A DNA stretch of 64,000 nucleotides from an uncultured Chloroflexia bacterium (GCA_963739395.1 CAVUAE010000001.1:710056-774055); one strand, 5' to 3'. Shown: positions 44,263 to 61,418, numbered from the stretch's first letter. Translations and numbers: made by a program. Notes: generated from the letters alone by a model not told the origin.

Positions 44263-44380
44263 TGGGCATACTCCTCTTAAAAATTTTGATTTAACCTTTA
44301 TGCCATATTATCATATTATCAATACAATTTTTAATCAAATCAAAACCCCGGGGCTTAAACCAAGGGGCTAATCTTATTAT

Positions 44381-44406
44381 TGATGGAGATAGGGGAGGGT
44401 CGAACT
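44381..44406 (-). repeat. ssrA 3'-end copy 5 (most degenerate, distal boundary)
   Basis: tgatggagataggggagggtcgaact. By hand alignment, 23 of 27 positions match tggtggagacgggggagggtcgaactc. Confidence 0.6.
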
Positions 44407-44419
44407 GTTACTGGGGGTA

Positions 44420-45202
44420 CTACGAAACCTCATCAAGCGCAAGCCTCAGCTTCCTTACGAAACGGCTAAGGGAGACGAAATTATCTTCAGCCTCCATAAG
44501 TTGAACTATTTTACTGCCAACAATCACGCCATCAGCTATCTTGGCTACCAATTTTGCCTGCTTGGGATTAGATATCCCGAAGCCAACACAGAGCGGCTTG
44601 GTGGTTACTTTCCTTACCCTGGCGACAAACTCTGCTAGATTCGCAGGCAATTTGCTTCTAACACCGGTAACTCCTGTAAGCGAAACCAGGTAGATAAACC
44701 CGCGTGACTTATGAGTTACCAGGCTGATACGCTCTTCGGTACTGGTTGGCGCCAGCAGGTAAATGAGATCAAGGCTATACCTCTGGGTGATAGCTTCCAG
44801 ATCTGAGGCTTCATCAGGAGGCAAGTCCGGGATAATTAAACCGCTGATACCGGATCTGGTACAGTCCTGGCAAAATTTCTCAAGCCCGTAACTATTAATC
44901 GGATTATAATAAGTCATGAATACCAGTGGTACATTCACCTTCTGGTTCAATTGCCGGGCGACCTCTAGGCAAAGTAGCGGAGTAACCCCGTTTTCCAAGG
45001 CATGGAAACTCGCCTTCTGTATAGTCGTACCATCAGCCAGAGGGTCGGAGAAGGGTATCCCCAACTCGATGATATCGCAACCACTGGCGGCAAGAAGAGG
45101 GACAACCTTCAAAGTAGCTTCAATAGTAGGATAGCCTACGGTGACATAGGATATAAGAGCACGGTGATGCATCGTACCGAAAACGGAACCGATTTTGCTC
45201 AT
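44420..45202 (-). CDS. trpA: Tryptophan synthase alpha chain
   Basis: [13 protein letters not shown] and GFGIS motifs. Confidence 0.9.
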
Positions 45203-46386
45203 GCCTTCACCTGTAATGCTTTAGATACGGTATCTATATCCTTGTCACCACGCCCGGATAAGTTAACGATGATAATTTGCTGCTTATCCAGAGAGCCTGC
45301 TATCTTCGCGGCATAAAATATGGCATGAGCCGATTCTAGAGCCGGGATAATGCCCTCGGTGCGACATAGTAACTGGAATCCCTCTAGCGCTTCCTTGTCG
45401 GTTACGGCAACATATTCAGCTCGCCCGGTGTCCTTGAGATAACCATGTTCGGGACCAACACCTGGGTAGTCAAGACCGGCAGAAATACTATGTGTCAGTT
45501 GAATCTGACCATGCTCGTCTTGCAGAATGTAGGACTTCGTTCCATGGAGCACACCAACTCTACCTGCTAACAGTGAAGCCGCATGTTTTCCGGACTTTAA
45601 TCCTCTTCCAGCAGCTTCCACGCCAACAAGTCTAGTATTTTTGTCGTTCAAGAAGGGGTAGAAAATCCCTATAGAGTTACTCCCGCCGCCGACGCAGGCG
45701 ATTATATAGTCGGGCAAGCGGTGGCATTTATTCAAAATCTGCTCTCTTGCCTCCTTGCCAATTACCGATTGAAAATCCCGCACCATCATGGGATAAGGAT
45801 GGGGTCCAACCACTGAGCCCAGAAGATAGTAGCTATCCCCAGGATTGGTAACCCAGTCTCTTATTGCCTCATTAATAGCGTCTTTTAACGTCCGGCTACC
45901 GCTGCGAACTGACCTCACTTCAGCACCCATTAGCTTCATTCGGAAGACATTTAGCGACTGGCGGCGCATATCTTCTTCACCCATATAGACGATGCAGTCC
46001 AAACCAAACCTGGCGCAAACCGCGGCAGTCGCTACCCCATGCTGCCCTGCCCCAGTCTCAGCAATGATTCTCTTCTTTTTCATTCTACGGGCAAGAAGGC
46101 CTTGCCCCAAAGCATTATTAATTTTATGGGCTCCGGTGTGAGTTAAATCCTCTCTCTTAAGAAAGATTTGAGCGCCGCCACAGTGTTTGGTTAGTTTCTC
46201 CGCAAAATAGAGCGGAGTCGGCCTGCCTGAATAATCACGGGACAAAGAATCGAATTCAGCCCAAAAAGCAGGGTCAGCCTTCGCCTCATTATAGGCAACA
46301 ATCAGCTCATCCAGGACTGGCATCAGAGTCTCTGGGACAAACCGGCCTCCGTAATTGCCAAAATATCCTCTGTTATCGGGTAACAC
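45199..46386 (-). CDS. trpB: Tryptophan synthase beta chain
   Basis: [19 protein letters not shown]-lysine motif and GGGSNSIG. Confidence 0.95.
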
Positions 46387-47437
46387 CTTTGTCCTCCTTC
46401 TGAATAGATTTAGGCTTGTTTTTCACCATCTCTTGCTCTGATTGGCTGGTCAAACGATTTATCTCGCTCATTAGCGTGGCGAACTGTTCTGGATAGAGGG
46501 ACTGCATACCATCAGATAAGGCGTGCAAAGGGTCATTGTGCACCTCAACCAGGATACCATCCGCACCTACCGCTATCGCTCCCCGCGAAAGGGGTATAAC
46601 ATACTCTCTTCTCCCGGCAGCGTGGCTGGGGTCAACTATAACTGGTAAGTGACTGACCTCTTTAATGGTAAGCACGGCACTTAAATCCAGAGTATTCCTG
46701 GTATTGTCGGAAAAAGTACGGATTCCGCGTTCACACAGGATAACGCGAGCATTCCCTTCAGCCATGATATATTCAGCCGACATCAGCAGCTCTTCAATCG
46801 TTGCCGCAAAACCGCGTTTCAACAGGACTGGTTTTTTGCTGTTTCCCACCCGGCGGAGCAGGGAATAATTTTGCATGTTCCTGGCGCCAATTTGTATGAT
46901 ATCGGCATATTGCTCGACGAGTTCAATATTGTTATGGTCGGTCGCCTCGGTTACAATCAACAGTCCCGTCTCTTCACGGACCTTCCTGAGTATTTTTAAT
47001 CCTTCTTCGCCTAAGCCTTGAAAACTATAGGGTGATGTCCTTGGTTTAAAGGCGCCGCCGCGAAAGACCTGTGCCCCGCATTGTTTCACGAGACGAGCTA
47101 TGGTAAGCGCCTGTTGTTCGCTCTCTATGGCACAGGGTCCGGCCATAATTACCGGCTTACTCCCGCCAACCATAACGTCCCCGATGGTGATGATTGTAGG
47201 CTGTGGATGCGTTTCCCGACTCACCAGTTTATAGGGTTTCGTTACACGGATAGTCTCTTTAACACCATCCAATACAAGCAGATGCGAATCATCTATTGGT
47301 CCCGGATTACCAACTATGCAAACAGCGGTGCGCTGGACACCAGGGATGGGAATGCCCCGATAGCCCAAGGCTTCAATTTCATGAATAACCGCTTTTACCT
47401 GTTCCTCCGTAACATCGTTCCTCATAATAACAAGCAT
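46373..47437 (-). CDS. aroF: 3-deoxy-7-phosphoheptulonate (DAHP) synthase, type I-beta with N-terminal ferredoxin-like regulatory domain
   Basis: [18 protein letters not shown] and DPSH motifs. About 70-aa N-terminal extension. Confidence 0.85.
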
Positions 47438-47488
47438 ATATTTACCCCTCCCTTATCGACTTCACAACTTGAATGAATTCCTTGATTT

Positions 47489-48094
47489 TCAATATATCTT
47501 TTTGCCATTTGTTTCTACGCCGGAAGAGACATCGACCCCCCAAGGGTGGACATCCTTAATAAGTTCGCCGACGTTGCCAGGCGTCAGACCTCCGGCAATC
47601 ATGAGAGGGAAAACAGTTTTAATCTCCCTAGCTAATCGCCAGTTGAATGCCTGACCGGTCCCACCATAAGCAGCACTAAACTTCGAGTCCAAAAGAAAGA
47701 TTAGCTCTTGCTTTTGGTAAACCTCGCATCCTCTTTTTATCTCGGTTAAAATTTGTTCGGCTTTCTTATCTGCTGATACATGAAGAGCTTTTATAATTGG
47801 ATACTTAATATCCCGGCAATAATCCCAGGTCTCGTCACCGCTGAGCTGTACCCGGTCCAAGTGACAGAGTTCGGCAATATGATTCACTTCTTGAGCTGCT
47901 GCATTCACAAAGACGCCGACAAGCGCCGGTCGCGGGTTCAAGCCACGTACTGCTGACGCAATCTGTAACGCTTTTTTGGGGGAGATGTAACGCCGACTTG
48001 GTGCGAATACCAGACCCAGGAAATCAGCGCCAGCCTCGGCAGCGACCAAGGCGTGTTCTATCTCAGTTAGCCCGCAGATTTTGACTTTGGTCAC
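47489..48094 (-). CDS. trpF: Phosphoribosylanthranilate isomerase
   Basis: [11 protein letters not shown]-terminus and the GVDVSSGVE motif. Confidence 0.85.
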
Positions 48095-48867
48095 AGTAAC
48101 TCCTTCATCTTAGCTTTGATATCAGGCGCTGCCATTAAAGCTTCACCAATTAGAACGGCATCAATACCCCACTTTGCCATCTTTTCTATATCATTGCGGT
48201 CCTTGATGCCACTTTCAGCGACTATTATTTTATCTTGCGGTATAAAGCGTGCGAGACGCTCGGTATTATTGATGTCCACGGCAAAGGTTTTCAGGTCGCG
48301 ATTATTGATACCGATAATGTTAGCCCCGCTTTGTAGAGCAATTTTAAGTTCCGCTTCGTCATGCACCTCAACCAAACAACTCATACCCAACTCGTGGCTT
48401 AATCCGATTAAGCCTGCTAATTTCTCGGCTGTCAGGATAACCACGATAAGAAGTATGGCATCGGCACCATAAGCTCTGGACTCGTAAACCTGGTAGGGAT
48501 CATTAATGAAGTCCTTCCTGAGCAAAGGCAATCTCTTGTTTCCGAGACTATCGCTTATACCTTTTAAATGGCTGAGACTGCCGTGAAAATATTTGGGTTC
48601 GGTCAGTACCGATATCGCTGAAGCACCGTTATTGGCATAGATTCCGGCTATCTCTACCGGGTCGAAGTCGGGACGGATAACACCCCTGGATGGAGACGTT
48701 TTCTTCACCTCGGCAATAAGCCGAATTTGCTCATCATTTATTGCCGCAGCAAAGTCGAGCGGTGGGGATTGTTCCAGAGCCAGTCTTCGCATTTCTGTCA
48801 GAGGAACAGCTTGTTTCCTCGCTTCAAGTTCCGACCGATTGTCAGCGACTATCTGTTCTAAAATCAT
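48091..48867 (-). CDS. trpC: Indole-3-glycerol phosphate synthase
   Basis: [18 protein letters not shown] and GINNRDL motifs. Confidence 0.9.
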
Positions 48868-49889
48868 TTTGGGCTCCCGATAGAACTTTGACTAATCTTG
48901 ATTAGCTGCTCCAGTTTAGCAATGGCACGACCACTATCAATTATTTCTCTAGATAGAGACACCCCTGATTGAAGCGTTTCCACCCTGTCTCCGGCAACCA
49001 GGGCAGCAGCGGCATTCATCAATACGACGTCTCGCCGGGGTCCGGGACTACCGGCGAGAACACCGCGTAATATAGCGGCATTTTCTGCGACGTCGCCACC
49101 TCTTAGACTGCTCAAATCGGCCGGCGCTAAACCGAAGTCTTCGGGACAGATGGAATAGGTTTTGATATTACCGTCTTTTAGCTCGCAGATTTGAGTTAGA
49201 CCATTAATGGTTATCTCATCCAAGCCATCCTCGCCGTGAACTACCAGTGCGTGATGACATTCCAGTGCTTTCAGCGCTAAAGCCATTTTCTCTACCAGAG
49301 TTCCGTCGGCCACGCCCAGGACTTGTGCCTTAGCGCCAGCGGGGTTGGTTAACGGACCAAGTATGTTAAATACAGTTCGGATGCCGATTTCGCGTCTTGG
49401 CGCTGCCGCTTGCTTCATCGCCGGGTGGAACATTGGAGCAAACATAAAACCAATGCCCACTTGTTCCAAACATTTCTGCACCTGTTCTGCGTTCAGTTCA
49501 ATCCTGACCCCTAGTGCTTCCAGCACATCAGCGCTACCACACTGGCTGCTGGCCGCACGATTGCCGTGCTTGGCTACCTTCAGTCCAGCGCCAGCAACAA
49601 CGAAAGCAGCCGCAGTAGAAATATTGAAGGTATTAAAACCGTCACCGCCTGTGCCTACGATATCAAGCACCGGTTCAGTTATAACCACCTGTGTTGCCTT
49701 GGCTCGCATGACACCGGCCAGTCCGGCAATTTCTTCCGCTGTCTCCCCCTTCATTCTCAAGGCTGTGAGAAAGGCACCAAGTTGCGCCGGGGTAGCTTTG
49801 CCCTCCATTATCTCTTCCATGACCGAGGCGGTCTCCTTGGTTGTTAGTTGACGACCTGATACCAAGATACCGATAGCTTCTCTAATCAT
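48864..49889 (-). CDS. trpD: Anthranilate phosphoribosyltransferase
   Basis: DIVGTGGDG and KHGNRAASS motifs. Confidence 0.9.
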   Translation of the reverse strand: MIREAIGILVSGRQLTTKETASVMEEIMEGKATPAQLGAFLTALRMKGETAEEIAGLAGVMRAKATQVVITEPVLDIVGTGGDGFNTFNISTAAAFVVAGAGLKVAKHGNRAASSQCGSADVLEALGVRIELNAEQVQKCLEQVGIGFMFAPMFHPAMKQAAAPRREIGIRTVFNILGPLTNPAGAKAQVLGVADGTLVEKMALALKALECHHALVVHGEDGLDEITINGLTQICELKDGNIKTYSICPEDFGLAPADLSSLRGGDVAENAAILRGVLAGSPGPRRDVVLMNAAAALVAGDRVETLQSGVSLSREIIDSGRAIAKLEQLIKISQSSIGSPK

Positions 49890-50475
49890 GACTGGTTCTC
49901 CTTAATTTTAGAAAGTTTCTCAGTATATCTTTCCCGCACTGAGTCATAAACGATTCAGGATGAAACTGAACACCCTCGACCGGGTTTTGGCGGTGTCGCA
50001 GTCCCATAATAGTGCCATCATCCGTCCACGCCGTTACTTCCAGACAATCGGGGAGTTTGTCACGCCCTACCATCAGGGAATGATAGCGAATGGCGGAGAA
50101 GGGATTGGGCAGTCCAGCGAATACCCCCTTGTTTTTATGATGTATCTCCGACGACTTACCGTGCATTATCACAGGGGCTTGCTGGATAAAGCCACCGTAA
50201 CTATAGCCGATGCACTGGTGGCCCAGACATACACCGAGTATCGGCAACCTGATACCAAAATGTTTTATAACCTCGTTGGAGATGCCTGCCTTTAGCGGTG
50301 TGGATGGGCCGGGTGATATCACTATTCGTTCCGGATTCATCCGGTCGATATCCTGTAGAGTAGTTTTGTCATTACGTACCACCAATACGTCTTCGCCCAA
50401 CTCACTTAAATACTGGAACAGGTTATAGGTGAAGCTGTCGTAATTATCTATCAGTAATAACATCGCTCCTCCCAT
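49882..50475 (-). CDS. trpG: Anthranilate synthase component II (glutamine amidotransferase)
   Basis: LLIDNYDSFTYNL, GVCLGHQ and FHPES triad motifs. The start may be the internal MLLLIDN (50463). Confidence 0.9.
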   Translation of the reverse strand: MGGAMLLLIDNYDSFTYNLFQYLSELGEDVLVVRNDKTTLQDIDRMNPERIVISPGPSTPLKAGISNEVIKHFGIRLPILGVCLGHQCIGYSYGGFIQQAPVIMHGKSSEIHHKNKGVFAGLPNPFSAIRYHSLMVGRDKLPDCLEVTAWTDDGTIMGLRHRQNPVEGVQFHPESFMTQCGKDILRNFLKLRRTSHD

Positions 50476-51916
50476 CTGTTGTTGAACTCTCAGCCTGACT
50501 TATGGCTTTGAGCAGCACCTGCATTTTATTCATTGATTCTTCGTATTCGCGCTCAGGCACACTATCGTAGACAATACCAGCGCCCGCCTGCATGTAAGCA
50601 ACGCCCTTCGTCATCACCATAGTTCTTATCGCTATGGCCATGTCCATATTACCCGAATAGGAAAAATAGCCAGCGGCGCCGGCGTAGGGTCCCCTTTTCT
50701 CTGGCTCAAGCTCAGCGATTATTTCCATAGCCCGAATCTTAGGCGCGCCAGACACCGTGCCCGCAGGAAAACAGGCGCGAAGGGCATCAAAAGCGGTGAG
50801 GTCATGCCTTAACTTACCCTGGACATGGGTGACCAGGTGCATGACATGGGAATAACGCTCAACATTCATCAGGTCGCTTATTTCAACTGTACCTGGTTTA
50901 CTGACACGCCCGATATCATTACGCCCCAGGTCTACCAGCATAATGTGTTCCGCGCGCTCTTTTTCATTACTGCGGAGTTCCTTTTCTAGCGAAGTATCCT
51001 CAGCCGGATTACTTCCTCGAGGTCTGGTCCCAGCTAAGGGGCGTGTCATTACTGTGCCATCCTCTACCCTAACCAGCATCTCAGGAGAAGCCCCTATTAT
51101 TTGAAAGTGATTGAAGTCGAGGAAAAACATATACGGGGAAGGATTAATGGTGCGGAGTACCCGATAGATTTCAAAAGGGGTGGCTTCGGTATGTAGAGCC
51201 AAGCGTTGGGATAACACCACCTGGATGGCCTCGCCAGCGGTGATGTACTGCTTTATCTTAAGCACACTTTTCTCGAAATTTTCTTTAGAGATGTTTGATG
51301 AAATTTTGTGGTTCTTTCGATGCCGAGCAGGACTGCTGGCAGGCTGGTCGGGCGGCAATGGTTGTTTTAGTCTTTCTATCAGGGCATCAATCTTGTCAGT
51401 CGCCTGTTGATAAGCGGCGTTAATATCGCCGTCAAGATGGACATGACTCAGGACTTTAATTTTATGAGTGACATGGTCGAAAACAAGCATAGTATCGACA
51501 AACATAAATAGCGATTCAGGTAAAGAAAGACTGTCGCCATCTGGTGACGGTAGCTTTTCGAAGCGGGTCACTGTTTCATAAGCCAGATAGCCTACAGCAC
51601 CACCAGTAAAACGCGGCAGGTCGCTGACGGTAACAATTTTATATTTATTTAGTTCTTTGGCAATCAGGGCAAGTGGGTCGACATTATCTGAGCTCCTGGT
51701 TGTTAGGACTTTGTATGGTTTAGTACCGATAAAACTATATCGCGCCACTCTCTGTCCACCCTCGACACTTTCCAAGAGAAAAGAATTACCACCCCGGTTA
51801 ATCTTGAGAAAGACAGACACAGGAGTCTCAAGGTCGGCAATAACCTCACGGTAGATAGGTATGAGATTACCATCTTTCCTGTACTTTTTTACTTCTTCTA
51901 GTGTCGGAAAATACAT
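50444..51916 (-). CDS. trpE: Anthranilate synthase component I
   Basis: Chorismate-binding motifs (GAPKIRAMEII, GGAVGYL). Start moved to the ATG at 51916 (MYFPTLEEV) with GGGAGG 8 nt upstream. The ORF track uses TTG at 51940. Confidence 0.9.
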   Translation of the reverse strand: MYFPTLEEVKKYRKDGNLIPIYREVIADLETPVSVFLKINRGGNSFLLESVEGGQRVARYSFIGTKPYKVLTTRSSDNVDPLALIAKELNKYKIVTVSDLPRFTGGAVGYLAYETVTRFEKLPSPDGDSLSLPESLFMFVDTMLVFDHVTHKIKVLSHVHLDGDINAAYQQATDKIDALIERLKQPLPPDQPASSPARHRKNHKISSNISKENFEKSVLKIKQYITAGEAIQVVLSQRLALHTEATPFEIYRVLRTINPSPYMFFLDFNHFQIIGASPEMLVRVEDGTVMTRPLAGTRPRGSNPAEDTSLEKELRSNEKERAEHIMLVDLGRNDIGRVSKPGTVEISDLMNVERYSHVMHLVTHVQGKLRHDLTAFDALRACFPAGTVSGAPKIRAMEIIAELEPEKRGPYAGAAGYFSYSGNMDMAIAIRTMVMTKGVAYMQAGAGIVYDSVPEREYEESMNKMQVLLKAISQAESSTTDGRSDVITDR

Positions 51917-51942
51917 TGAACTAAGCCTCCCGTCAGACAAAT

Positions 51943-52237
51943 AAAAAACCTCTCAACCCCGTTAGGGGCGAGAGGTTTAACCTTTCGCGGTGCCACCCTA
52001 ATTGATTGCCCGGGAAAAGAAATACTGGCAATCATCTCTTTTGAGGTACGGCCTCAATATTTCTGAAGCGATACCCTGGGTTTCATTAACGGGACCCTTT
52101 CCGTCAAATCCTACTCGGTTTATACCCTTTCGGTTTGCAGCTCCCGAACCCATTCAACCTCTGCGCTAGCACCGGCTCACACCTAACCCGGTTCTCTGAG
52201 CTCCGCTGGAAGCCTACTAGTCTCGTTCCAAGCCTTT
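51943..52237 (-). promoter_or_regulatory. T-box riboswitch leader, Trp-specific, with intrinsic terminator
   Basis: Minus-strand GGGUGGCACCGCG (plus-strand 51986-51998), then the terminator AACCUCUCGCCCCUAACGGGGUUGAGAGGUU plus U6. AGAGA box at 52193-52197. GAAUGGG specifier context with UGG at 52150-52152. Confidence 0.75.
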
Positions 52238-52243
52238 AGAAAA

Positions 52244-52273
52244 AGTATAGTCGATTAGCCAGGTTTCTGTCAA
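52244..52273 (-). promoter_or_regulatory. Sigma70-like promoter of the trp leader
   Basis: Minus strand TTGACA-18 nt-TATACT. Confidence 0.5.
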
Positions 52274-52387
52274 GAAGGAGACAAACACAACTAAAAATCT
52301 CCTGAGCGTATATTGCGTCATATTGTTCATCTAGGTTAAATCAAATCCGTGTTTTAAATGAACCTATAAACGGCTCATCCGTGTTTC

Positions 52388-52415
52388 TGGTGGAGATGGG
52401 GGAGGGTCGAACTCC
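52388..52415 (-). repeat. ssrA 3'-end copy 4
   Basis: tggtggagatgggggagggtcgaactcc. 26 of 27 core positions match. Confidence 0.7.
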
Positions 52416-52461
52416 ACCTGAAATATTGTCTATAAAGAGATTTTAAACAAAATTTATTAAG

Positions 52462-54372
52462 CTAAGGTCTTAGTTTCTCTAGCAAATCATTAAGCCCAAT
52501 GGTGGCTAAACCAATAACCTTATCTCCGCCGCCATAATAGAAGTATAGTGTGTTTTCAATTACTACAGCTCCGCAGGAAAAAACCACATTATTAACGATG
52601 CCGTTTTTCTCGTAGTGCGTCTCCGGTTCCATGATCGTATAATACGTACGCCCGATGACACTTAAGGGGTCGTTTAAATCTAGAAGAGCTGCTTTGATAT
52701 CATAGATTGATTGCTTAACAGTAACACCGTGACAGAGTAAAAGCCAGCCGTAAGGGGTTTCGATGGGGGGACCGGCAATGCCGATTTTCTTATGAACACG
52801 CGGCATGGCTGTCGGTTCCATTAAAACCTGCCCGTAAATCCATCGATTACCATCAAAGTCAAGGCTATCAACAAAGTCAATCCAGATACTGCCGCCGAGA
52901 CGGTGCAAAATAACGTATTTACCCTTTATTTTCTTGGGAAATATAGCCGCATCTTTATCATCCATACCAGGTGGAGAGATTAGCACCGGTTCAGCCCAAT
53001 TCCAATGCTTGTCTAAAAAGTCTGCCAGCTTAATATGGGTAAGAGCTACACGTGGGAGGTCTTTCCCGTTATAAGCGGTATAGCACATGTACAATTTATC
53101 ATCGATTCGGGTAATTCGAGGGTCTTCACAACCCGAATTACCTCCGGGCACATATTTTGCCTCAAAATCTTTGCGGGGGACATATATTGGCTCGGGAAGC
53201 CTCTCGGTAATTCGCATACCATCAGCACTGGAAGCGTAGCCAAGGACAGATGTATTATCATTGGACATGGCTCGATATACTAAATGGACTCTCCCGTTTT
53301 CATAAATAGCCGCGGTATTAAAGGTTGCTTGAGCTTCCCATGTGTTTTGGGGATTAGGTGTTATGATAGGATTATCAAAAAATCTCTTTAGTTTGACGGC
53401 GTTAACTTCAATGCCTAATATTTCACGTAGCAATGACTCGAATTCGATGGTAGCTAAAGCACAGGTAGTATCAGCTGCCCCGTAATACATATGTAATTCT
53501 TTACCTTTAACATAAGCGCCTGTTGGAAAAACTATATTCGGCACCCGTCCGTATCTTTCGTATTGCTCTCTGGGTATCAGCAAAGGTTTTTTCGTGCGGC
53601 CAAGCACCTCGGTTGGATTATTAAAATCCAATAATGCCGCTTCAACGCCGAATGTCGCCGGCGGTGCAAAATAATTCTGGATATGACTATAAATCAACAG
53701 CCATCCATATTTAGTTTTTAACGGCGGCGCGCCAACTTCTATCTGGTCATGAGGCGAACGCTCCAAAGGAATGGCATGAGAATTCAGGGCTTCATACCAT
53801 TGCTGCCAGTATTTCTCCGACCAGATTTGAGCCTCATCATCGAAATAGGCTACGGCGATTTTAACCGGCGGATTGTCCGTATTAGCCGCTAGCACGGCGG
53901 CAATTTTACCATTGATTCTTTCCGGGAAGAGCGCCATGGCTTTAGCATTGAAAGTAGTAACCGGATATTTGGCATCAATTTGGTTAAAATCTCTAGTGAT
54001 AGCCAAACCAACTTTAATGCCGTCTGCATGGAAAGGGTATTTGGATAATGCCGTGTAAAAAATATAATACTTGCCATCAAATTTAGTTACCCTCGGGTCC
54101 TCGCAGCCGAATTGCTCCCAGTCATACTCCGGCCTGATAAGCTGATGACGTTGCTTAAAATGAACGCCGTCTTTGCTTACCGCACAGCCGACGGAAGAGT
54201 TGATTTTTTTCCCCATCCCATCAGCCAGTGATAAAGATTCAGCTCTATATAAGAGAACAACTTTTCCTTTATATATAGCAGCACAACCGTTAAAAGTAGC
54301 CTCTCCCTCCCAGTTATTATCAGGATTAGGCAACAGGATTGGATTTTCTTCCGAACGTTTAAAGATAATCAT
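52462..54372 (-). CDS. Tandem double GH130-family glycoside phosphorylase/hydrolase (two complete domains fused)
   Basis: Two repeats, each with NPIL/ITPNP...WE...FN, the GCEDPR motif (FGCEDPRV, SGCEDPRI) and YYGGAD/YYGGGD. Confidence 0.75.
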   Translation of the reverse strand: MIIFKRSEENPILLPNPDNNWEGEATFNGCAAIYKGKVVLLYRAESLSLADGMGKKINSSVGCAVSKDGVHFKQRHQLIRPEYDWEQFGCEDPRVTKFDGKYYIFYTALSKYPFHADGIKVGLAITRDFNQIDAKYPVTTFNAKAMALFPERINGKIAAVLAANTDNPPVKIAVAYFDDEAQIWSEKYWQQWYEALNSHAIPLERSPHDQIEVGAPPLKTKYGWLLIYSHIQNYFAPPATFGVEAALLDFNNPTEVLGRTKKPLLIPREQYERYGRVPNIVFPTGAYVKGKELHMYYGAADTTCALATIEFESLLREILGIEVNAVKLKRFFDNPIITPNPQNTWEAQATFNTAAIYENGRVHLVYRAMSNDNTSVLGYASSADGMRITERLPEPIYVPRKDFEAKYVPGGNSGCEDPRITRIDDKLYMCYTAYNGKDLPRVALTHIKLADFLDKHWNWAEPVLISPPGMDDKDAAIFPKKIKGKYVILHRLGGSIWIDFVDSLDFDGNRWIYGQVLMEPTAMPRVHKKIGIAGPPIETPYGWLLLCHGVTVKQSIYDIKAALLDLNDPLSVIGRTYYTIMEPETHYEKNGIVNNVVFSCGAVVIENTLYFYYGGGDKVIGLATIGLNDLLEKLRP

Positions 54373-55661
54373 CTGGGTCCTTTCGTCTTCTTTCGTATAG
54401 CTTTTTTCTTAGGCTTAGTTGTTTTTACGAAAGTAATCATCTTCGCCCCACACTTCAGGCAAACTCCTTTGATAATGCGTCGTTTATTATTCAGAGTTAT
54501 AGGATGCTGGTCTTTCATCACTCTCATTTTCTTACATTTCAAACAATACCCTTTGACAAGTTCTATCTCCTCTTCGACTTCATCCGGAGGTTCAGCGTTT
54601 ATGCTTTCACCCGCCGGTTCTCTATGATTGGCGACAAGCTGTTCAATAAAGCCGTTTAGCTTTACCGATGCCACACAAACCACCGTGTCAGCTCCGCCAT
54701 AATAAACAAACAGGCGTTCGTCAATGATTGCCGCTCCACAAGGGTAAATCACCCCTCTTTTCCAGCCCTCATTTTCATACCAGACATCTGGTGCCAGGAT
54801 GGGATTGCTGCTTCGGGCTAAAACTTTAGTTGGGTCTTTTAAATCAAGTAGCATTGCTCCTATTTTATAGTGATATTCTCCGCCATTATGGACAGCCTGG
54901 TAGATAAGCAGCCAGCCGTCTTTCGTTTTTAAAGGGGGCGGACCACAACCGACCTTAAGATTATCCCAATCCGAGCTTGTGGCTCTAACCGGTATTTCAT
55001 ATTGTCCGGTCAGCCACCTTGTACTGCCGTCAAAATCAAGGTCATCGACAAAATCAATCAGTATATTAGGAAAAACGCGATGAAAAATAACATATTTGCC
55101 ATTGATTTTTTCCGGTAGGAGACAGGCATTTTTATCCACAATATGAGGAGGCGAAATAAGGACGGGTTTCTTCCAGTTCCACTTTCTGCTAAGAAAATCC
55201 TTCAGGGAGATAGAACTTAATGCTATCCTCGGTTGAGTATGCCCATCATAAGCAACATAGATGATGTAAACTGTATTATTGATTCTAGTGAGGCGCGGGT
55301 CTTCACAGCCGCCCATCTCCCCACCACCGGAAACGTAAACGCCCGGCATTCCTGGTTTATACTGATAAGCCGGGTTGACTCCTTCAAAAGGCTCTCTGGG
55401 CACATACACTGGATAAGTCAGGCGCTCATGTATATGTAATCCATCAAGACTGGAAGCATAGCCTAATACCGAGACGTCCGTTTCGCCAATTGCACGGTAA
55501 AGAATGTGTATTTTGCCGCTTTCGTAAAGAGCAGCGGGGTTAAAAACAGCCTTGGTCTCCCATGAATGGCTCGAGTTTGGTTTCAATATCGGGTTATCGG
55601 CAAACCTTTCCAGTACCAGCCGGATGTTCGGTATTTTTTGGAGAGTTTTTCTGCCTCCCAC
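54369..55661 (-). CDS. GH130-family protein with C-terminal CxxC-CxxC zinc-ribbon and lysine-rich tail (GTG start)
   Basis: GGCEDPRLTRI and YYGGADT motifs. C-terminus CLKCKK...CLKCGAKMITFVKTTKPKKKAIRKKTKGPR. Confidence 0.75.
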   Translation of the reverse strand: MGGRKTLQKIPNIRLVLERFADNPILKPNSSHSWETKAVFNPAALYESGKIHILYRAIGETDVSVLGYASSLDGLHIHERLTYPVYVPREPFEGVNPAYQYKPGMPGVYVSGGGEMGGCEDPRLTRINNTVYIIYVAYDGHTQPRIALSSISLKDFLSRKWNWKKPVLISPPHIVDKNACLLPEKINGKYVIFHRVFPNILIDFVDDLDFDGSTRWLTGQYEIPVRATSSDWDNLKVGCGPPPLKTKDGWLLIYQAVHNGGEYHYKIGAMLLDLKDPTKVLARSSNPILAPDVWYENEGWKRGVIYPCGAAIIDERLFVYYGGADTVVCVASVKLNGFIEQLVANHREPAGESINAEPPDEVEEEIELVKGYCLKCKKMRVMKDQHPITLNNKRRIIKGVCLKCGAKMITFVKTTKPKKKAIRKKTKGPR

Positions 55662-55999
55662 TTGATGTCCCCTTTAGTAGCTGAAAATATAATTTATAGT
55701 AATTACTTTGAGTATATAGTATGCCTGTAGGCATACAATGGTGCTACCACCGATTCATTCTAGGGATATTTCTTTAATTTATTCCGTAGCTGACTCAACA
55801 CAAATGTAATTTTCATCGCAAATGTTAATAACTAACTAGAAATACTTAACACAATATGATAGGTATTTCTATTTATAATCTTAGAACTCAAATAGTATCA
55901 AAATTATTAAAATTTGACTAAATAAATCACAAAATTACCACATTTTAAAAATTCGGATTTTGATTGTCTTAGATATCGTCCCCGCAAAGGATTACGGCA

Positions 56000-56027
56000 T
56001 GGTGGAGACAGGGGAGGGTTGAACTCT
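56000..56027 (-). repeat. ssrA 3'-end copy 3
   Basis: tggtggagacaggggagggttgaactct. 25 of 27 core positions match. Confidence 0.7.
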
Positions 56028-56067
56028 ACATGAAAAAAGATATCGATAATTGGCTGACAGGGAAATA

Positions 56068-58737
56068 CTACAATTTCACCATCATATATCCCGCCCTGGT
56101 TAAAATGGTCGGAATTCCTCTTACCAAGATACGGTCTTTTTCCTTTGCTTCTTCGGTAAGTTTTTCCCATAGGACAAGGTCCTGGTGGAGTTTTTTCTCT
56201 TTATCCGTTTTTTCAGCATATTGCCAGCCGTCATTGAATTTCTGCTGCATCCATCGTTCATGTTCTGCTACAGCCAAAATTTCAACTTCATTATTAGAGA
56301 AATTACCGGGAGTTTCATTGCCACGCATAGGAACGATAACATATCCCACCTTAGTGAGTTTGCGTTGGATATCCCGTGCATTGCTGCGGTTTTGTTCTTT
56401 CTCATTGTCAGGTAATTCTTGATAAGGCTTTAGTGAACTGTGCTCTTTCCTGTCTTCATGGGTGACCAGACCATAAGTCCAACCCTTTTTACGCATGTCT
56501 TGAACAAACAGCTCATGAACAGTTTCCGCCAGCTTTTCTACAAGAGTGCTGGTAAGTTCCATTCGGTTCATGATAGATGAAAAATCACGACTGTCGACAT
56601 GCATATTTAACTGGGTCTCATATGGTAAGCAGGAGCGTTCAAAGGAAGATTTGCCGGCAAGCTGGCTCATCGAAACGATTGCCTCCATTGACCTGGCGCC
56701 ATGTTTATATTCGTTAGTAAGTAAAAAGGCGAGCAATAATCCCTGGTCAATATTGGCGATTTTCTTATTCCCTTCATTAATGAAAAGACGAGGAGCAGAA
56801 CGTTCGAGAATAGAACGAAGAAGAATCGCTCGACGGATGATATAATAAGGATCCTTAGTTTGTCCCTGAATGTTTTTATCCACTTGCCGGTTTGGTCCGA
56901 GGATATTGAGAAATCCTTTAAGCCTACTGACAAAATCAGGCAATTTGACCAGGATTTGTTCTTTATCGTCAAGGTTTGCACCAAAAGACTCCATGTTATA
57001 GCTAGTTCCTCCGGCAAAGATAAAAATACTACGCCCGATAGGATGAACTATCTGCCCTTCTTGAAATTCTCCATCTTGCATTGGAGCGAGGAAATACCGT
57101 AACCAGCCTAATGGTTGATTCTGCAATTTGGTATCAAATTCATCCCAGAACACCAGCGGGATTTTTCCGATTAGGACTTTATCCCTTACCTGATGAAAAG
57201 CGTCATATAAATCATTAGGTCCGGCCAGTTGCGAAAGATTGAATGTCAGAGTCTCAATTTCTCCGGGCAACACTGATTTGGCAATCTCTTTAACAGTAAA
57301 AGACTTGCCCGACCCTGGCGGGCCAAAAACAGCAATAGACAATGGCGTCTTCTGGTAACGCTGGTGATACTCATGAATAAAACCGCTAATGCTACGCAAG
57401 CCTTCTATTTCTTTTCGGTCTACGGTCTTTAAGTTGCCGAAACTGCCCATCGGGATGTCAGGTATCGCCTGTTCCAGACCTTCAACAACAATTTTTTCGG
57501 CGACACCCTCAAGTAAATTGGGATATTTATCCTCTAGGATAGCCCAGAAACGATTGTCCTGATTATCACCAACGCTCTCGATGGAAGTTGTCAGTCCTTG
57601 TAAAGGCATTTTGATAAAAGTCGAGGCAATTGACTTGTCATTTTCTGCTAACGCACTGGCTATCTTCGATATCGGGAAGGTGAGGTCTATCTGTGATTCA
57701 TTACTATTAACATGACCATATCCTTCTATATGAAGAACGCGAGTGGCATGAATACCAGACTGGATGCCGCGAAAGACATTTGGTTTTGTGGTATTCAACA
57801 TGAGTTCATGAGTAATACCTGCAGTAAGGCATGTATTGTAGCCGACCATATAGCCTTTGTGATTTTGTCCCCATTCACCCTCCATCGCCTTCGGGTCAAA
57901 AAATAACACCGCTTGCGGAACCGATTTCGGGTTGTTCACAACTAATATCGCGCCTGCCGTTCCGAAGGAAACAATAACATGTCCGCATTGCGCCAGACTA
58001 TTTACTTTAGGATTATATAGTAACTCCCAAACCATATCCTGGGCAGTTCTTTCCCAAGACAACCGTCGGCTAATTTGAACTTGACTGCTTCTTAAGTCGT
58101 CCGCCGTCATCACCACAATAAGCTGTTCCGAATGGTGACTAATTAAATATTCCCATAATCTACCCTGCATCACTGGTTTAGCCATTTTAAGAACAATCCA
58201 TGGTTTGGCTTCATTATTCGATAGTACCTGTGGCCATAACTCCGGATTATCACGGAATCCCTGATTGTCATCATTTAGTACAATAATATCTGGCAAAGCA
58301 CGTTCGTCAGTGACTTTTTCAATTTTTTCCTTCATGCTGGATTCTTTATGCAACGAGTTTACCCCTAAAAACTCGCGCACACGCCAGACGCTACCAAGCT
58401 CAGGTTTACGTTCGTCCAATTTATGTGGTGCCCAGATTGAATAGGAATGATGGAAGTTTGTATCAACAGGAGATATCCACCCACGTGGATATTCGACATG
58501 GTGGACTGTAAAACTCCCTTGTCCTGTTTTATGGAGGTTACTGGCGATGGTCTCAATGAGTTCAGCCAATAAAAATGCACCACCGCGCTGACAACAGGCT
58601 GATGTAATTTCATCCGCCGTCCAAGTCTTTGCCACAATATCTTCCTGGAACACGCGGGCTATGTTCCAATCAATAGTCACATCCCCAGTTACGACAACAG
58701 TTTTATTGTCTTGTGTTTTGTTCATCGAGAACCCCAC
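56068..58737 (-). CDS. 889-aa multidomain protein: unassigned N-terminal domain (about 340 aa, weakly PfkB/ribokinase-like), AAA+ ATPase, two C-terminal RyR domains
   Basis: Walker A FGPPGSGKSF and Walker B LVFWDEFD. Two RyR-like repeats: LAETVHELFVQDMRKKGWTYG...LKPYQELPDNEKEQNR...GYVIV and LAVAEHERWMQQKFNDGWQYA...LVLWEKLTEEAKEKDR...GYMMV. Confidence 0.6.
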   Translation of the reverse strand: MGFSMNKTQDNKTVVVTGDVTIDWNIARVFQEDIVAKTWTADEITSACCQRGGAFLLAELIETIASNLHKTGQGSFTVHHVEYPRGWISPVDTNFHHSYSIWAPHKLDERKPELGSVWRVREFLGVNSLHKESSMKEKIEKVTDERALPDIIVLNDDNQGFRDNPELWPQVLSNNEAKPWIVLKMAKPVMQGRLWEYLISHHSEQLIVVMTADDLRSSQVQISRRLSWERTAQDMVWELLYNPKVNSLAQCGHVIVSFGTAGAILVVNNPKSVPQAVLFFDPKAMEGEWGQNHKGYMVGYNTCLTAGITHELMLNTTKPNVFRGIQSGIHATRVLHIEGYGHVNSNESQIDLTFPISKIASALAENDKSIASTFIKMPLQGLTTSIESVGDNQDNRFWAILEDKYPNLLEGVAEKIVVEGLEQAIPDIPMGSFGNLKTVDRKEIEGLRSISGFIHEYHQRYQKTPLSIAVFGPPGSGKSFTVKEIAKSVLPGEIETLTFNLSQLAGPNDLYDAFHQVRDKVLIGKIPLVFWDEFDTKLQNQPLGWLRYFLAPMQDGEFQEGQIVHPIGRSIFIFAGGTSYNMESFGANLDDKEQILVKLPDFVSRLKGFLNILGPNRQVDKNIQGQTKDPYYIIRRAILLRSILERSAPRLFINEGNKKIANIDQGLLLAFLLTNEYKHGARSMEAIVSMSQLAGKSSFERSCLPYETQLNMHVDSRDFSSIMNRMELTSTLVEKLAETVHELFVQDMRKKGWTYGLVTHEDRKEHSSLKPYQELPDNEKEQNRSNARDIQRKLTKVGYVIVPMRGNETPGNFSNNEVEILAVAEHERWMQQKFNDGWQYAEKTDKEKKLHQDLVLWEKLTEEAKEKDRILVRGIPTILTRAGYMMVKL

Positions 58738-58797
58738 CCAATACTCTACGATTAATTGACTTTTTTCAATTTAATTAGCAAGACTCTTGATTCCGAT

Positions 58798-58826
58798 ATT
58801 ATGCTATATGAGCGACTACTAGTCAA
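58798..58826 (-). promoter_or_regulatory. Sigma70-like promoter for the 889-aa gene
   Basis: Minus strand TTGACT-17 nt-CATAAT. Lies between the gene start and ssrA copy 2. Confidence 0.45.
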
Positions 58827-58900
58827 CATTAATAGCATATATGGTGAAAGGAAAAAGAAAAGGAAATGTCAATCAACTATTAGTACTAAAATTTGAAGCT

Positions 58901-58927
58901 TAGTGGAGACGGGGGAGGGTTGAACTC
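58901..58927 (-). repeat. ssrA 3'-end copy 2
   Basis: tagtggagacgggggagggttgaactc. 25 of 27 core positions match. Confidence 0.7.
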
Positions 58928-59079
58928 TCCCTGAAACACGATATATCGTCAATTGGCTAATTAGGTTCGTTCTTGTATATGTGACTTAAAAAATGGTATC
59001 ACTATTGGCGTCACACCAACTTTGACAAGCTGGAATTAGCCTTTTTACTTCTAAAACAATGTTTTAGCAACTGCCCCTA

Positions 59080-59108
59080 TTGACAATTTTTTTTTACCGT
59101 ATTATAAT
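59080..59108 (+). promoter_or_regulatory. Perfect-consensus sigma70 promoter
   Basis: TTGACA (59080-59085), 17 nt, TATAAT (59103-59108). About 150 nt upstream of the 59261 ATG. Confidence 0.55.
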
Positions 59109-59260
59109 TCTGTAAATATTGAAGTGACGCTTGATTATCATATTGATTTTAATATTGTGTGAACATTTATAATTAGTAGAAATAACATAGTTACCAGGCT
59201 AACAGACACATAAATGCGTAGTAAATTATACTGCGCTGTATTTACTAAAGGAGGCAAGCT

Positions 59261-60793
59261 ATGAAAGCAGTACTCGCGCTCGCTATTGTTATTATATTGT
59301 TGGTACCGATGGCTACCACGTGGGGCTGCTCGGGAGATGGCGGTCAAATCCAGGATAAAACTGTCATATCTGCAGATGCCGATACTGATAATTATTTAGT
59401 CTGCACGCCGGAAGATACATACGACGAAGGCGCAATAACCTGTTACGTGGACAGCGTGAACGGGAACGACGAGAACGACGGTCTGTCAGAGGCATCTCCA
59501 GTAAAATCCCAATCGGCCATTGATCCTAGATGCACCGTGGTACGCTTCAAACGCGGCAGTGTCTTCAACGAAAAATTGGCCGTTCGTACTTTCTTTAACA
59601 AACTCGGCTTCGGCTACAACGTAAAAGTGTACACCAACTACGGTCCCGAAAGTGATCCCCTGCCCCATTTCAAAGTACCGAGCGAACCTGGGAGAGGCCC
59701 TGTGGTCCTTACGTTTTCTCCGCTAACCATCGATGGTCTGCATTTCTCGGGAGCCAGGGGCGACAACACCATGGTACATGATTTTGACAACGACGGAGAT
59801 GGGATTACCAAAGGTATCGTCGGAGGTATCGGCGCCTTTCTAGGAGCCGCCACTACATTTATCAACAATGAAATCGACAAATGCGATATCGGCATCATGC
59901 TGGGCGGCCCAGGTTCTGTCGTACGCGGCAACTATGTGCACGACCTCATCATGGGCATCGACGAATCTCCCGGCGTGGATCCGAATCTGGTAGGCGGCGC
60001 TGAAGGTATTTTCGTTAACGCTTCCAACTGTGAGGTGTCGTACAATGCATTTATCAACTGTTCGGGTTATGCCGAGTGGGTGGGTGCAAACGGCAAGTAC
60101 GACGGCGGTGCCACCGAAGTTTCCATAGCATCGGGCGGCACTATCGAAAATGTCCACATCCATCACAACTACGCCTACAACTGTTGCGGCTTTTTTGAAG
60201 TCGCCACGTACTTTGGTAATCAGGGCAAAGGCGTATTTAAGGATTCGTCATTCCATAACAACGTAATCGTCGACAGCGGTTGGATGGGACTGCTTCAGGT
60301 AAACAATACTGACCTTGAAAATATTCGCTTCTACAACAACACCCTCATCCAGCACAAGGGTTCCATTAACGAAGGATATCTTTGGATAATCTTCACCGCT
60401 GTATCATCGGGCATGCAAGGCGGCAGGCTTGTTCCCGGAACTGTGCACCTGACCAACAACCTGTTTGTTCTGGACGGTGTCACCCCCAAGGGCCGATTGA
60501 TTGATCCGGCGTTTGATGCCAATAACAATATCGTTACCAACTACTGGGGTCCTGAAGATACTAAATATGTTGATCTCGGCTTTGCCGACATCACAGGAAC
60601 CTCTGCATCATCTTTTGATCTGGTGAACGCCGACAGCCCTGCAGTGGACGCCGGCGCCGATATAGGCTATAACACACTGGACTACTTCAATCGTAAGCGT
60701 CCCAATGGCACCGCACCGGACATCGGCGCCATGGAATTCGGCTCCGCCCAGACCAAATGCATCCCGCGATTTCGAGCTGAGAGGGATCATTAG
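59261..60793 (+). CDS. Secreted lipoprotein with right-handed parallel beta-helix (pectate-lyase-fold) repeats
   Basis: Signal peptide with a lipobox-like TTWGC. Periodic repeats GNYVHD, VSYNAFINC, IHHNYAYNC, FHNNVIVDS, FYNNTLIQH and LTNNLFVLD. Confidence 0.65.
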   Translation: MKAVLALAIVIILLVPMATTWGCSGDGGQIQDKTVISADADTDNYLVCTPEDTYDEGAITCYVDSVNGNDENDGLSEASPVKSQSAIDPRCTVVRFKRGSVFNEKLAVRTFFNKLGFGYNVKVYTNYGPESDPLPHFKVPSEPGRGPVVLTFSPLTIDGLHFSGARGDNTMVHDFDNDGDGITKGIVGGIGAFLGAATTFINNEIDKCDIGIMLGGPGSVVRGNYVHDLIMGIDESPGVDPNLVGGAEGIFVNASNCEVSYNAFINCSGYAEWVGANGKYDGGATEVSIASGGTIENVHIHHNYAYNCCGFFEVATYFGNQGKGVFKDSSFHNNVIVDSGWMGLLQVNNTDLENIRFYNNTLIQHKGSINEGYLWIIFTAVSSGMQGGRLVPGTVHLTNNLFVLDGVTPKGRLIDPAFDANNNIVTNYWGPEDTKYVDLGFADITGTSASSFDLVNADSPAVDAGADIGYNTLDYFNRKRPNGTAPDIGAMEFGSAQTKCIPRFRAERDH

Positions 60794-61071
60794 AGATGTA
60801 TTTCCCCTCCCTGGACATATTTGATCCGCGGCGAAGCCATTGTTTATCTTTGTTGATATTTCTAATGGTGAATTGAAGCTCCCTGCAGCCCCCGCTCTCC
60901 GAGCGGGGATCTCCACAAAGTTCCGACAAGTCACCGACGGGCCAAAGCCGCCATTCTATAACCTATTTGAAGCGCTCAAGCACATGCCTGATAATAAGGT
61001 TGTAATATTCAGACCGGGCACAAAACAAAAAGAAACAGGCCCCGGAATTACCCGAGAGCCTGATTATGCTA

Positions 61072-61418
61072 TGGTGGAGACGGGGGAGGGTCGAACTCCC
61101 CGTCCAAAAGAAGCTGTCCAGGATATGCTACAAGCTTAGTCAGCTCTTTAATCTTACCGGGCTTACCTCAACTGACCGAGTTAAGCCCAGCCAGCCGATA
61201 AATCTTTCACCGCTTTTATCGACATTAAAGCGGCGGCACCCCAACTTTTCGGCACCCAATCCTGACCCGTCGGGGTGAGGTCAGGTTGGATGGCAACCTA
61301 TGTTAGGCTGCAACCATTACTGGTTCTGCGTTTGTTTTTTGCCAGCGGTTTTAGGAGGGACCGGCACCTCCGCCTGCAGTCCTGTAACGCACCTCCTCTG
61401 TCGAAACCACGCGTCCCC
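61072..61418 (-). ncRNA. ssrA: tmRNA (transfer-messenger RNA)
   Basis: The minus strand starts GGGGACGCGUGGUUUCGAC and ends GGGAGUUCGACCCUCCCCCGUCUCCACCA. The acceptor stem pairs with a G3-U wobble and the T-arm is intact. An internal reading frame ends ...NAEPVMVAA-UAA. Immediately downstream of smpB. Confidence 0.85.

Follow-up and report, generated by a model that had tools for sequence, protein, structure and literature searches.

Copies of the tmRNA 3' end downstream of ssrA delimit a probable tandem array of recombinase-less islands in a Dehalococcoidia genome

The stretch of DNA analyzed here, called the window, comprises 64,000 nt from an uncultured Chloroflexia bacterium (GCA_963739395.1 CAVUAE010000001.1:710056-774055), and the 17 kb considered in particular (44381-61418) consist of the transfer-messenger RNA (tmRNA) gene ssrA and the region 3' of it, in which four further copies of the ssrA 3' end are found. 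We conclude, with a probability of roughly 0.8, that these 17 kb are a tandem array that arose by serial site-specific integration at the T-loop/3' end of ssrA, that the integrating elements belonged to the family described in Dehalococcoides mccartyi, and that their integration modules have since been lost. This mechanism is supported by the five cores, which occur only at the 3' end of ssrA and downstream of it, by the element arms next to three of them, by a pair of recombinases present in relatives, and by a recombinase remnant at repeat 4. The part played by site recombination of the DsiB/DsiA family is proposed on the homology of sites and enzymes. Because all integration modules are lost, the modules of the array would now be either fixed fossils or mobile only in trans. 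An earlier note on the window had already proposed a tandem array of ssrA islands, fossil or mobilizable in trans, and this proposal is supported by the arms, the relatives' recombinase pair, the remnant at repeat 4 and the variable content downstream of ssrA. The gene, the repeats and their flanks are as follows.

61072-61418, minus strand: ssrA (tmRNA), intact and full-length (ARAGORN; Rfam RF00023, 154 bits; alignment with the tmRNAs of relatives)
61031-61071, minus strand: ssrA terminator hairpin, also the ssrA-proximal end of module 1 (terminator-like site 61057-61040)
60942-61016, plus strand: possible degraded remnant of a recombinase C-terminus (PKPPFYNLFEAL...), weak, adjoining ssrA
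58901-58960, minus strand: repeat 2, core 58901-58927 (25/27) and element-side arm 58928-58960 (22.4 bits), reading TAGCCAATTGACGATATATCGTGTTTCAGGGA on the minus strand
56000-56057, minus strand: repeat 3, core 56000-56026 (25/27) and element-side arm 56027-56057 (12.9 bits)
52388-52437, minus strand: repeat 4, core 52388-52414 (26/27) and element-side arm 52415-52437 (14.6 bits)
52327-52387, plus strand: putative 3' remnant (about 20 codons) of a DsiB-like recombinase gene, abutting repeat 4 and overlapping a hairpin of the ssrA-terminator type
44381-44407, minus strand: repeat 5, core only (23/27), the most decayed copy, 13 nt after the trpA stop codon (nhmmer E 4e-4)
44340-44380, minus strand: flank and terminator after repeat 5 (terminator-like site 44365-44346)

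The tmRNA models agree with the earlier view that an intact tmRNA ends at 61072, both ARAGORN and Rfam giving this end. The core, that is, the last 27 nt of ssrA (61072-61098), reads GAGTTCGACCCTCCCCCGTCTCCACCA on the gene strand (the 27-mer is also written TGGTGGAGACGGGGGAGGGTCGAACTC) and consists of the last 3 nt of the 5' T-stem, the T-loop, the 3' T-stem, the acceptor strand and ACCA. Its copies lie on the ssrA strand at 58901, 56000, 52388 and 44381; the coordinates and match counts given before were exact, and the common orientation is confirmed. No match to the core was obtained in 100 shuffles, and there is no sixth copy in the 64-kb window (both strands, up to five mismatches, and a nhmmer profile scan). 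All four repeats are located 3' of ssrA, at distances of 2.1-16.7 kb, and none is found elsewhere in the window. All core copies are intergenic and delimit four modules, and the open reading frame (ORF), Pfam, NCBIfam and Rfam results bear out that they occupy gaps around discrete gene sets. The flank that follows ssrA itself (61031-61071) resembles the flank after the intact ssrA of a metagenomic relative (L188; score 33, null maximum 24).

As an aside on the gene itself, ARAGORN places the tag peptide AVKDLSAGWA at gene position 206-238 (window 61300-61335), compared with the usual position of about 90 in relatives. In the alignment with relatives' tmRNAs, GCA GAA CCA GTA ATG GTT GCA GCC TAA stands at the usual place and encodes AEPVMVAA, as in L180. 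The ARAGORN tag looks like a miscall, and a similar miscall is seen in L100.

Just 5' of the core, repeats 2-4 share the motif (TCG)TGTTTCAGG. Scored with a weight matrix built only from 12 displaced sites in unrelated metagenomic contigs outside the window, their arms reach the values listed above, which at most 5e-5 of the window's 30-mers equal (8e-6 in the case of repeat 2), and the mean of 98 true ssrA flanks is -6.4 bits. Repeat 2, which reads TTCAGGGAGAGTTCA on the gene strand, fits 14 of the 15 positions of TTCAGRSMGMRKCCA, the conserved motif found 5' of the ssrA-island repeats in D. mccartyi (PMC3146451). Because the arms fit both the metagenomic matrix and the D. mccartyi motif, repeats 2-4 are, judged by sequence, distal junctions composed of element arm and core, and would belong to the att-site family of the Dehalococcoides ssrA islands. 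The flanks of copies 2-5 had been described as alike; this stands for copies 2-4 but not for copy 5, where the candidate CAG..A.AG was ruled out as an arm-like sequence by a random-level score of -15.3 bits. Beyond the arm, repeats 2 and 3 (58936-58960 and 56035-56057) share a further 25 nt or so, AGCCAATT..CGATAT(AT)C, and the extended arm of repeat 2 contains the palindrome CGATATATCG. This shared sequence of modules 1 and 2 might bind an accessory factor, or it may reflect no more than a close relationship between the two elements.

A scan of metagenomic contigs (given here as L numbers) for the core, allowing the substitutions seen in the window, matched at least 120 contigs. Among the matches listed, 102 are true ssrA genes (flank ...TGGACGGG) and 18 are displaced copies with another flank. 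Nine of these 18, together with three second copies on other contigs, carry GTTTCAGG(K)(N), often ATATCGTGTTTCAGG, immediately 5' of the core, and several contigs among the matches listed contain tandem repeats. The objection that the 27-mer might be a dispersed repeat unrelated to ssrA thus finds no support, since the window has no other copy and the metagenomic copies listed are either true ssrA genes or lie beside island features. At least two further conserved flank classes, GGTAYGATD and TTGACAGTG (L101, L132, L174, L193; L086, L087), precede displaced ssrA ends, and in L116 a tyrosine integrase gene overlaps the ssrA 3' end; several unrelated element families therefore appear, from their sequences, to use the same 27-nt target. 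The core pattern had no match in viral contigs.

The enzymes that could have acted on these sites are found in the relatives. At 11 metagenomic loci, a large serine recombinase ORF lies on the opposite strand directly 3' of the core and extends away from ssrA, its last codons falling in or just beyond the core, which is the published position of dsiB. The full-length recombinase of L130/L172 (608 aa) combines Resolvase, Recombinase and Zn-ribbon domains and shares 60% identity with a serine recombinase of D. mccartyi and 58% with proteins from Dehalogenimonas. In L130, it is followed by a 203-aa resolvase-only protein, mirroring the pair DsiB and DsiA. We also observed that the DsiB-like ORFs of L130, L172, L175, L189, L177 and L128 have no stop codon before the att core and read through it into the ssrA body, in a frame that differs by subfamily; the C-terminus of the recombinase would therefore change with the integration state.

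In the window itself, none of the 52 large ORFs encodes a recombinase, resolvase, integrase or transposase (Pfam and NCBIfam scans), so that the statement that no recombinase gene is visible in any module extends to the whole 64 kb; ARAGORN found no tRNA-like gene in the window. A tblastn comparison of the relatives' recombinases with the window gave matches only in the cores of the repeats and in short flanking stretches. The 1,465,721-bp contig to which the window belongs carries none of the best 120 DsiB homologues, the only ones considered. The absence of an integrase, which had been regarded as unusual, is not: McMurdie et al. (2011; PMC3146451) list 15 ssrA islands of D. mccartyi without integration modules.

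One piece of a recombinase gene nevertheless seems to have survived. On the plus strand, 52327-52387 reads SSRLNQIRVLNEPINGSSVF and continues through the core of repeat 4. By tblastn, it is 73% identical over 26 aa to the recombinase of L175 (E 4e-8) and 62% identical over 34 aa to that of L189, the matching tails being SDIRIVNEPLNGSSLF and SRIRILNEPLGTSPAGSSVF, respectively. The 60-nt flank on the low-coordinate side of repeat 4 is similar to the flanks that follow ssrA in L175, L189, L170 and L119 (scores 27-41, shuffle maximum 22), and for the repeat 4 flank taken alone the best score is 41 (null maximum 22). The remnant is followed by the trp promoter (52273-52244) and the T-box. On this similarity, we regard 52327-52387 as the left (ssrA-proximal) end of an island. 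A second remnant at 60942-61016 is suggestive only: among 2894 six-frame fragments, this segment ranks first against a profile of recombinase C-termini, with a frame that runs into ssrA, but its E value is 0.9.

Taken together, these observations can be arranged in the following scheme. A large serine recombinase of the DsiB type, probably with DsiA, would join the element site (arm plus core) to the T-loop/3' end of ssrA. Each integration would restore ssrA from the element's own copy of the core and push the previous 3' end outwards as a direct repeat, preceded by the element arm. The repeats at 58901, 56000 and 52388 would then be the distal junctions of modules 1, 2 and 3, and the repeat at 44381 the oldest. 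At least four successive events would have stacked modules 4 to 1, in this order as far as can be inferred, and later deletions would have taken out every integration module, one of them leaving the recombinase codons beside repeat 4. In this scheme, the core would represent the whole half-site 3' of the crossover, so that an internal repeat (arm plus core) would be equivalent in sequence to the element site, and ssrA to the chromosomal site; therefore, a recombinase acting in trans could in principle excise any leading block of modules. The order of events, the entry of the trp operon with the oldest island and any present-day mobility are likewise proposed rather than observed.

The modules, together with the genes 5' of ssrA, are as follows.

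58928-61071: module 1 (2.1 kb), with one gene at 59261-60793 (plus strand) for a 510-aa secreted/lipoprotein-like protein with a choice-of-anchor Q domain
56027-58900: module 2 (2.9 kb), with one AAA+/RyR gene at 56068-58737 (minus strand), 889 aa (885 aa as annotated; Pfam RyR and AAA)
52415-55999: module 3 (3.6 kb), with a GH130 plus DUF5679 gene at 54369-55661 (minus strand) and a double-GH130 gene at 52462-54372 (minus strand)
44408-52326 (to 52387 with the remnant), minus strand: module 4 (8 kb including the remnant), with promoter, T-box leader and trp operon
52273-52244, minus strand: trp promoter, TTGACA-18-TATACT
51961-52239, minus strand: T-box leader (Rfam, 101.5 bits)
44420-51940, minus strand: trpE-G-D-C-F-aroG-B-A (Pfam matches)
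61430-61885, minus strand: smpB, immediately 5' of ssrA (Pfam SmpB, 195 bits)
61949-63733, minus strand: glmS, conserved chromosomal flank 5' of ssrA (NCBIfam glmS equivalog, 748 bits)

Each of modules 1-3 lies between two cores, with an element arm on its distal side and only cargo genes inside, and the modules are very compact, with 13-47 nt between a gene's stop codon and the next core. The module 1 protein matches NCBIfam NF041518 and no Pfam family, and its gene has its own perfect-consensus promoter (TTGACA-17-TATAAT, 59080-59108); a PDB sequence search with this protein found nothing, nor did PADLOC with the proteins of modules 1 and 2. Proteins homologous to that of module 2, with 50-66% identity, are frequent in Chloroflexota, and one of them is encoded beside SLATT and TIR genes. 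In module 3, the matches are to Pfam Glyco_hydro_130 and to the NCBIfam beta-1,2-mannobiose phosphorylase (449 bits). A short-read contig of the same organism (L213, ERR10755944) differs from the window by one 1-nt indel over 4.7 kb, which splits GH130 and DUF5679 into two genes (332 and 104 aa) in place of the window's single 430-aa ORF (54369-55661); the difference is either a sequencing error or a real frameshift polymorphism. The G+C contents of modules 1, 2, 3 and 4 (trp) are 50.9, 43.1, 44.1 and 48.4%, so that modules 2 and 3 lie below the 48.4% of the core genes; codon-usage divergence does not discriminate at these gene lengths, and only G+C and the G+C of third codon positions are informative.

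Small repeat-bounded modules without a recombinase are also present in metagenomic contigs, where they carry BrnT/BrnA (L086), ParE (L107) or an ABC-F protein (L144), and an 8.8-kb ABC-transporter module of the same kind is found in L174. Two further cases were noted. In L090 (374-1958), the first module after ssrA, 1.5 kb long and bounded by repeats, codes for an ArfB-like protein with an RF-1 domain (Pfam RF-1, E 3e-22), and thus an alternative ribosome-rescue factor is cargo at the tmRNA gene itself. In L122 (3597-5216), a reductive-dehalogenase-like gene (Pfam Dehalogenase, E 6e-9) is the only gene of a 1.6-kb module that follows ssrA, is bounded by repeats and has no recombinase; this module resembles an rdhA cassette of one gene.

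The region downstream of ssrA is variable among relatives, all of which are distant (SmpB at most 82% identical). The closest matches are 82% for SmpB (the best genome match, in a metagenome-assembled genome of Dehalococcoidaceae), 76% for TrpA and 66% for the module 2 protein; the contig of that genome ends at most 261 nt from smpB, and the two closest genome contigs stop at smpB/ssrA, as expected for a variable or repeated locus. Exact look-ups of SmpB and of the module 1 protein returned no record; for TrpA and the module 2 protein, the only records were short contigs whose sequence is identical to the window. The order glmS-smpB is common to L001 and L100. The relatives share glmS-smpB-ssrA and nothing downstream, and the content after ssrA is different in every relative examined. 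In the closest one, L114 (tmRNA end 88% and ModB 87% identical), the first shared landmark is a molybdenum cofactor (Moco) riboswitch with modAB, and modA lies 10 kb from ssrA compared with 36 kb in the window. No window protein has a match in these 10 kb at E 1e-8. Because L114 shares nothing with the window between ssrA and the modA landmark, we consider the whole ssrA-modA interval plastic, the 17 kb with recognizable repeats being its younger part. By eye, and with no family-library scan, the 10 kb of L114 contain genes for a flavoprotein, two sulfatases and a radical-SAM maturase, with the modAB region at L114 1-1495. In the window, the Moco riboswitch with modABC and then a 14-kb polysaccharide/O-antigen-like cluster (wzm/wzt, rml, methyltransferases and glycosyltransferases) occupy 22295-39369, before ssrA is reached.

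The segment just beyond the last repeat (39402-44262) has a low G+C content (35-42%) and encodes a B12-binding radical-SAM enzyme (PADLOC candidate PDC-M51A), a MoaF-domain protein of 578 aa and an M78-peptidase/HTH pair resembling regulators of the CapP/CapH type (PADLOC capP, E 2e-12). Perhaps this segment is an older island without a detectable repeat. At the other end of the window, 144-5620 contains chemotaxis genes (CheC-like, CheA, CheW and a Cache/HAMP methyl-accepting protein) in what is apparently a 1.47-Mb Dehalococcoidia genome. To our knowledge, chemotaxis genes of this kind are lacking in cultured Dehalococcoides.

Several observations weigh against an array made by DsiB-type integration, and some of them bear in particular on the trp operon. 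As the window has no recombinase gene, the mechanism is drawn from the homology of the sites and from relatives. Homologues of the module 2 protein and of TrpA occur in other contexts, where neither ssrA nor a repeat is close by; the window is collinear across repeats 2, 3 and 5 with two short-read contigs from the same organism (ERR10755944); and neither a sister strain nor an excised form was seen. The flank type of repeat 4 also occurs without a recombinase in L119, L170 and L101, after an intact ssrA in the first two, so that it may be a terminator conserved behind ssrA and not purely the scar of a deletion. Selection for an ssrA terminator may also explain why just this piece of the recombinase gene survived. 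Repeat 5 has no recognizable element arm, its score being no better than random, and the G+C content of the trp operon equals that of the core genes, so that the operon is compositionally native. Finally, in L115 (SmpB 73%), ssrA and its terminator are followed directly by trpB (81%) and trpA (72%), with no repeat after trpA, and in D. mccartyi, too, the trp region is next to ssrA, lying between it and the start of HPR2, and an anomalous history of this region has been noted (PMC2764846).

These last points would fit a narrower reading, in which only modules 1-3 are islands, the trp operon is an old neighbor of ssrA, repeat 4 is the true distal end of a recent array, and repeat 5 is left over from an unrelated and much older event and has ceased to mark a mobile unit. 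We consider this reading unlikely, if still worth keeping in mind, and the same holds for the bare proposition that the trp operon is an old chromosomal neighbor, which we doubt to a similar degree. Against it, repeat 5 is a genuine copy of the core on the same strand, so that the operon still lies between two ssrA-derived sites; the flank of repeat 4 encodes an in-frame recombinase C-terminus, as the proximal end of an island does; and the sequence after repeat 5 is similar to that which follows the intact ssrA in L114 (local score 33, null maximum 26), as expected for a terminal junction. In addition, the trp unit occurs with identical gene order, in some cases also with a T-box, in four different neighborhoods in four relatives, and so does relocate. 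With two genuine cores around the operon and an island-type stub at its proximal end, island status for the trp module is probable, and we lean, with some reserve, towards the view that the operon entered, or was fixed, as part of the oldest island. The earlier description of the operon as cargo stands in so far as ssrA-derived cores bracket it, but was overstated in view of the missing arm, the core-like G+C and the situation in L115.

It is also conceivable that the modules are live cassettes, each arm plus core serving as a functional attP-like site, and that a DsiB/DsiA pair, encoded at another place in the genome or by an incoming element, excises and re-inserts single modules or blocks of them, as CcrAB does for ccr-less staphylococcal cassette chromosome (SCC) elements. 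The near-perfect match of the repeat 2 arm to the consensus and the compactness of the modules would suit this possibility, as would the recurrence in metagenomes of integrase-less repeat-bounded modules of 1-3.5 kb (BrnT/BrnA, ParE, ArfB-like, reductive dehalogenase, ABC-F) and the cis-mobilizable elements proposed by McMurdie et al. (PMC3146451). Yet each core of repeats 2-5 differs from that of ssrA at 1-4 positions, no variant junctions are present in the organism's short-read contigs, homologues of the module genes elsewhere are not flanked by repeats, and no recombinase is encoded in the 64 kb, nor, among the best 120 DsiB homologues, on the window's contig; we therefore regard live cassettes as rather improbable. 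More speculative still is a broader view, in which the ssrA 3' end of many Dehalococcoidia is an integron-like platform for gene capture that takes up short integrase-less cassettes with DsiB/DsiA acting in trans; equally tentative is its corollary that a cassette is made up of a small number of genes, or just one, and an attP-like site of some 40-50 bp (arm and tmRNA core) and is stacked, shuffled and exchanged. If this were true, the cassettes would extend from toxin-antitoxin pairs, through a ribosome-rescue factor and a reductive dehalogenase, to an entire trp operon under T-box control, and even housekeeping biosynthesis of these streamlined genomes would travel as a cassette. The repeats might, on the other hand, have nothing to do with integration and instead function at the RNA or DNA level, for example as a terminator or a tRNA-like 3' stabilizer, or form a dispersed family that resembles the tmRNA end. 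Three repeats do lie 13-47 nt after a stop codon on the coding strand, and hairpins follow the cores at ssrA, repeat 4 and repeat 5. However, the RNA folds at repeats 2, 3 and 5 are no more stable than those of shuffled sequences (z = -0.4, +0.65 and -0.3), and we have rejected an RNA element for this reason; furthermore, the arm does not preserve the T-stem pairing, and the distribution of cores in the window and in metagenomes is that given above, which makes this explanation extremely improbable.

An array formed by serial integration at ssrA is best compared with the ssrA islands of D. mccartyi (PMC2764846, PMC3146451). In both cases, the islands are arranged in tandem 3' of a single ssrA, less than 100 kb downstream, between direct repeats of its 3' end that all have the same orientation, and a conserved motif that is not part of ssrA stands just 5' of the repeats, in the window at repeats 2-4 only. 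In relatives of the window, the recombinase and the small resolvase lie, as in D. mccartyi, on the opposite strand beside the core. D. mccartyi also has a repeat-free variable region beyond the last repeat (PMC3146451), which the ssrA-modA interval of the window resembles. Nevertheless, the two differ in several ways. The host of the window is another Dehalococcoidia lineage, as indicated by the SmpB match, the chemotaxis genes and the 1.47-Mb contig; the shared core is 27 nt long here and 20 nt there; and the cargo of the window includes no reductive dehalogenases. The integration module of D. mccartyi, which is ssrA-proximal, comprises dsiB, dsiA and recF-like, parB-like and tRNA-Gly-like genes, of which the window has only the dsiB-like remnant of about 20 codons. 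All four modules of the window lack an integration module and three are only 2-3.6 kb long, and the trp operon is inside the repeat array here but lies between the start of HPR2 and ssrA in D. mccartyi. Explanations for islands without integration modules, namely cis-mobilization with accretion, or fixation, have already been offered together with an analogy to SCC and CcrAB (McMurdie et al. 2011, PMC3146451). The Dehalogenimonas dcpA island (2026, PMC13390414) is likewise located downstream of ssrA beside smpB and bounded by direct repeats, but it spans about 23 kb, carries recombinase, primase and ParB genes and has one or two repeat pairs, in contrast to the four short recombinase-less modules described here. 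Since all defining site features are present, the array of the window is of the site-specific ssrA-island kind already described in Dehalococcoides.

DsiB is a homologue of CcrB. The large serine recombinases of SCC elements are homologous to DsiB and have a smaller serine recombinase as partner; SCC elements target the 3' end of a single-copy essential gene, they form tandem arrays with direct repeats, and ccr-less pseudo-SCC elements can be moved in trans. The analogy with SCC/SCCmec at rlmH (orfX) of staphylococci and CcrAB was drawn in PMC3146451; the target gene, the host phylum and the att sequence all differ, and the Dehalococcoidia system is known from its sequence alone. Cis-mobilizable elements and accretion are also known from ICESt1/ICESt3 of Streptococcus thermophilus (Pavlovic et al. 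2004, cited in PMC3146451); there the integrase is of the tyrosine type and targets the 3' end of fda, and a functional partner element is located in cis, whereas no partner is visible here. Modules 1-3 are flanked by att sites and lack recombination and transfer functions, as cis-mobilizable elements (CIMEs) do.

Cassette arrays of integrons consist of short, mostly one-gene modules in the same orientation, with the recombination site a few tens of nucleotides after the stop codon and entry at one end; they depend on the tyrosine recombinase IntI, folded single-stranded attC sites and an attI/Pc platform. The window has no IntI, attC folding or attI/Pc, and its modules carry their own promoters. 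It has no Phage_integrase match, and its repeats are tmRNA 3' ends without unusual folding, so that the array is not an integron.

Compared with these systems, the points of interest here are that every module of the array is cargo-only and very compact, that a recombinase stub is left beside one repeat, that a T-box-regulated housekeeping trp operon lies inside the array, and that, on the evidence of the metagenomic contigs, both the att arm and the recombinase pair occur widely among environmental Dehalococcoidia. The Dehalococcoides ssrA-island mechanism would thus extend to another lineage of the class, with no dehalogenase cargo in the window, and to many environmental relatives, including marine ones, with an att-site arm that is conserved across this breadth. 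The array also provides a clean example of decay, in which compact cargo-only modules and a stub remain, and a warning for annotation, as tmRNA-end repeats mark the borders of islands even where there is no integrase. If the trp module is truly an island, then a housekeeping amino-acid operon of a 1.47-Mb genome would have been placed or moved by integration at the tmRNA site, which would bear on the odd evolutionary history of the trp region beside ssrA in D. mccartyi.

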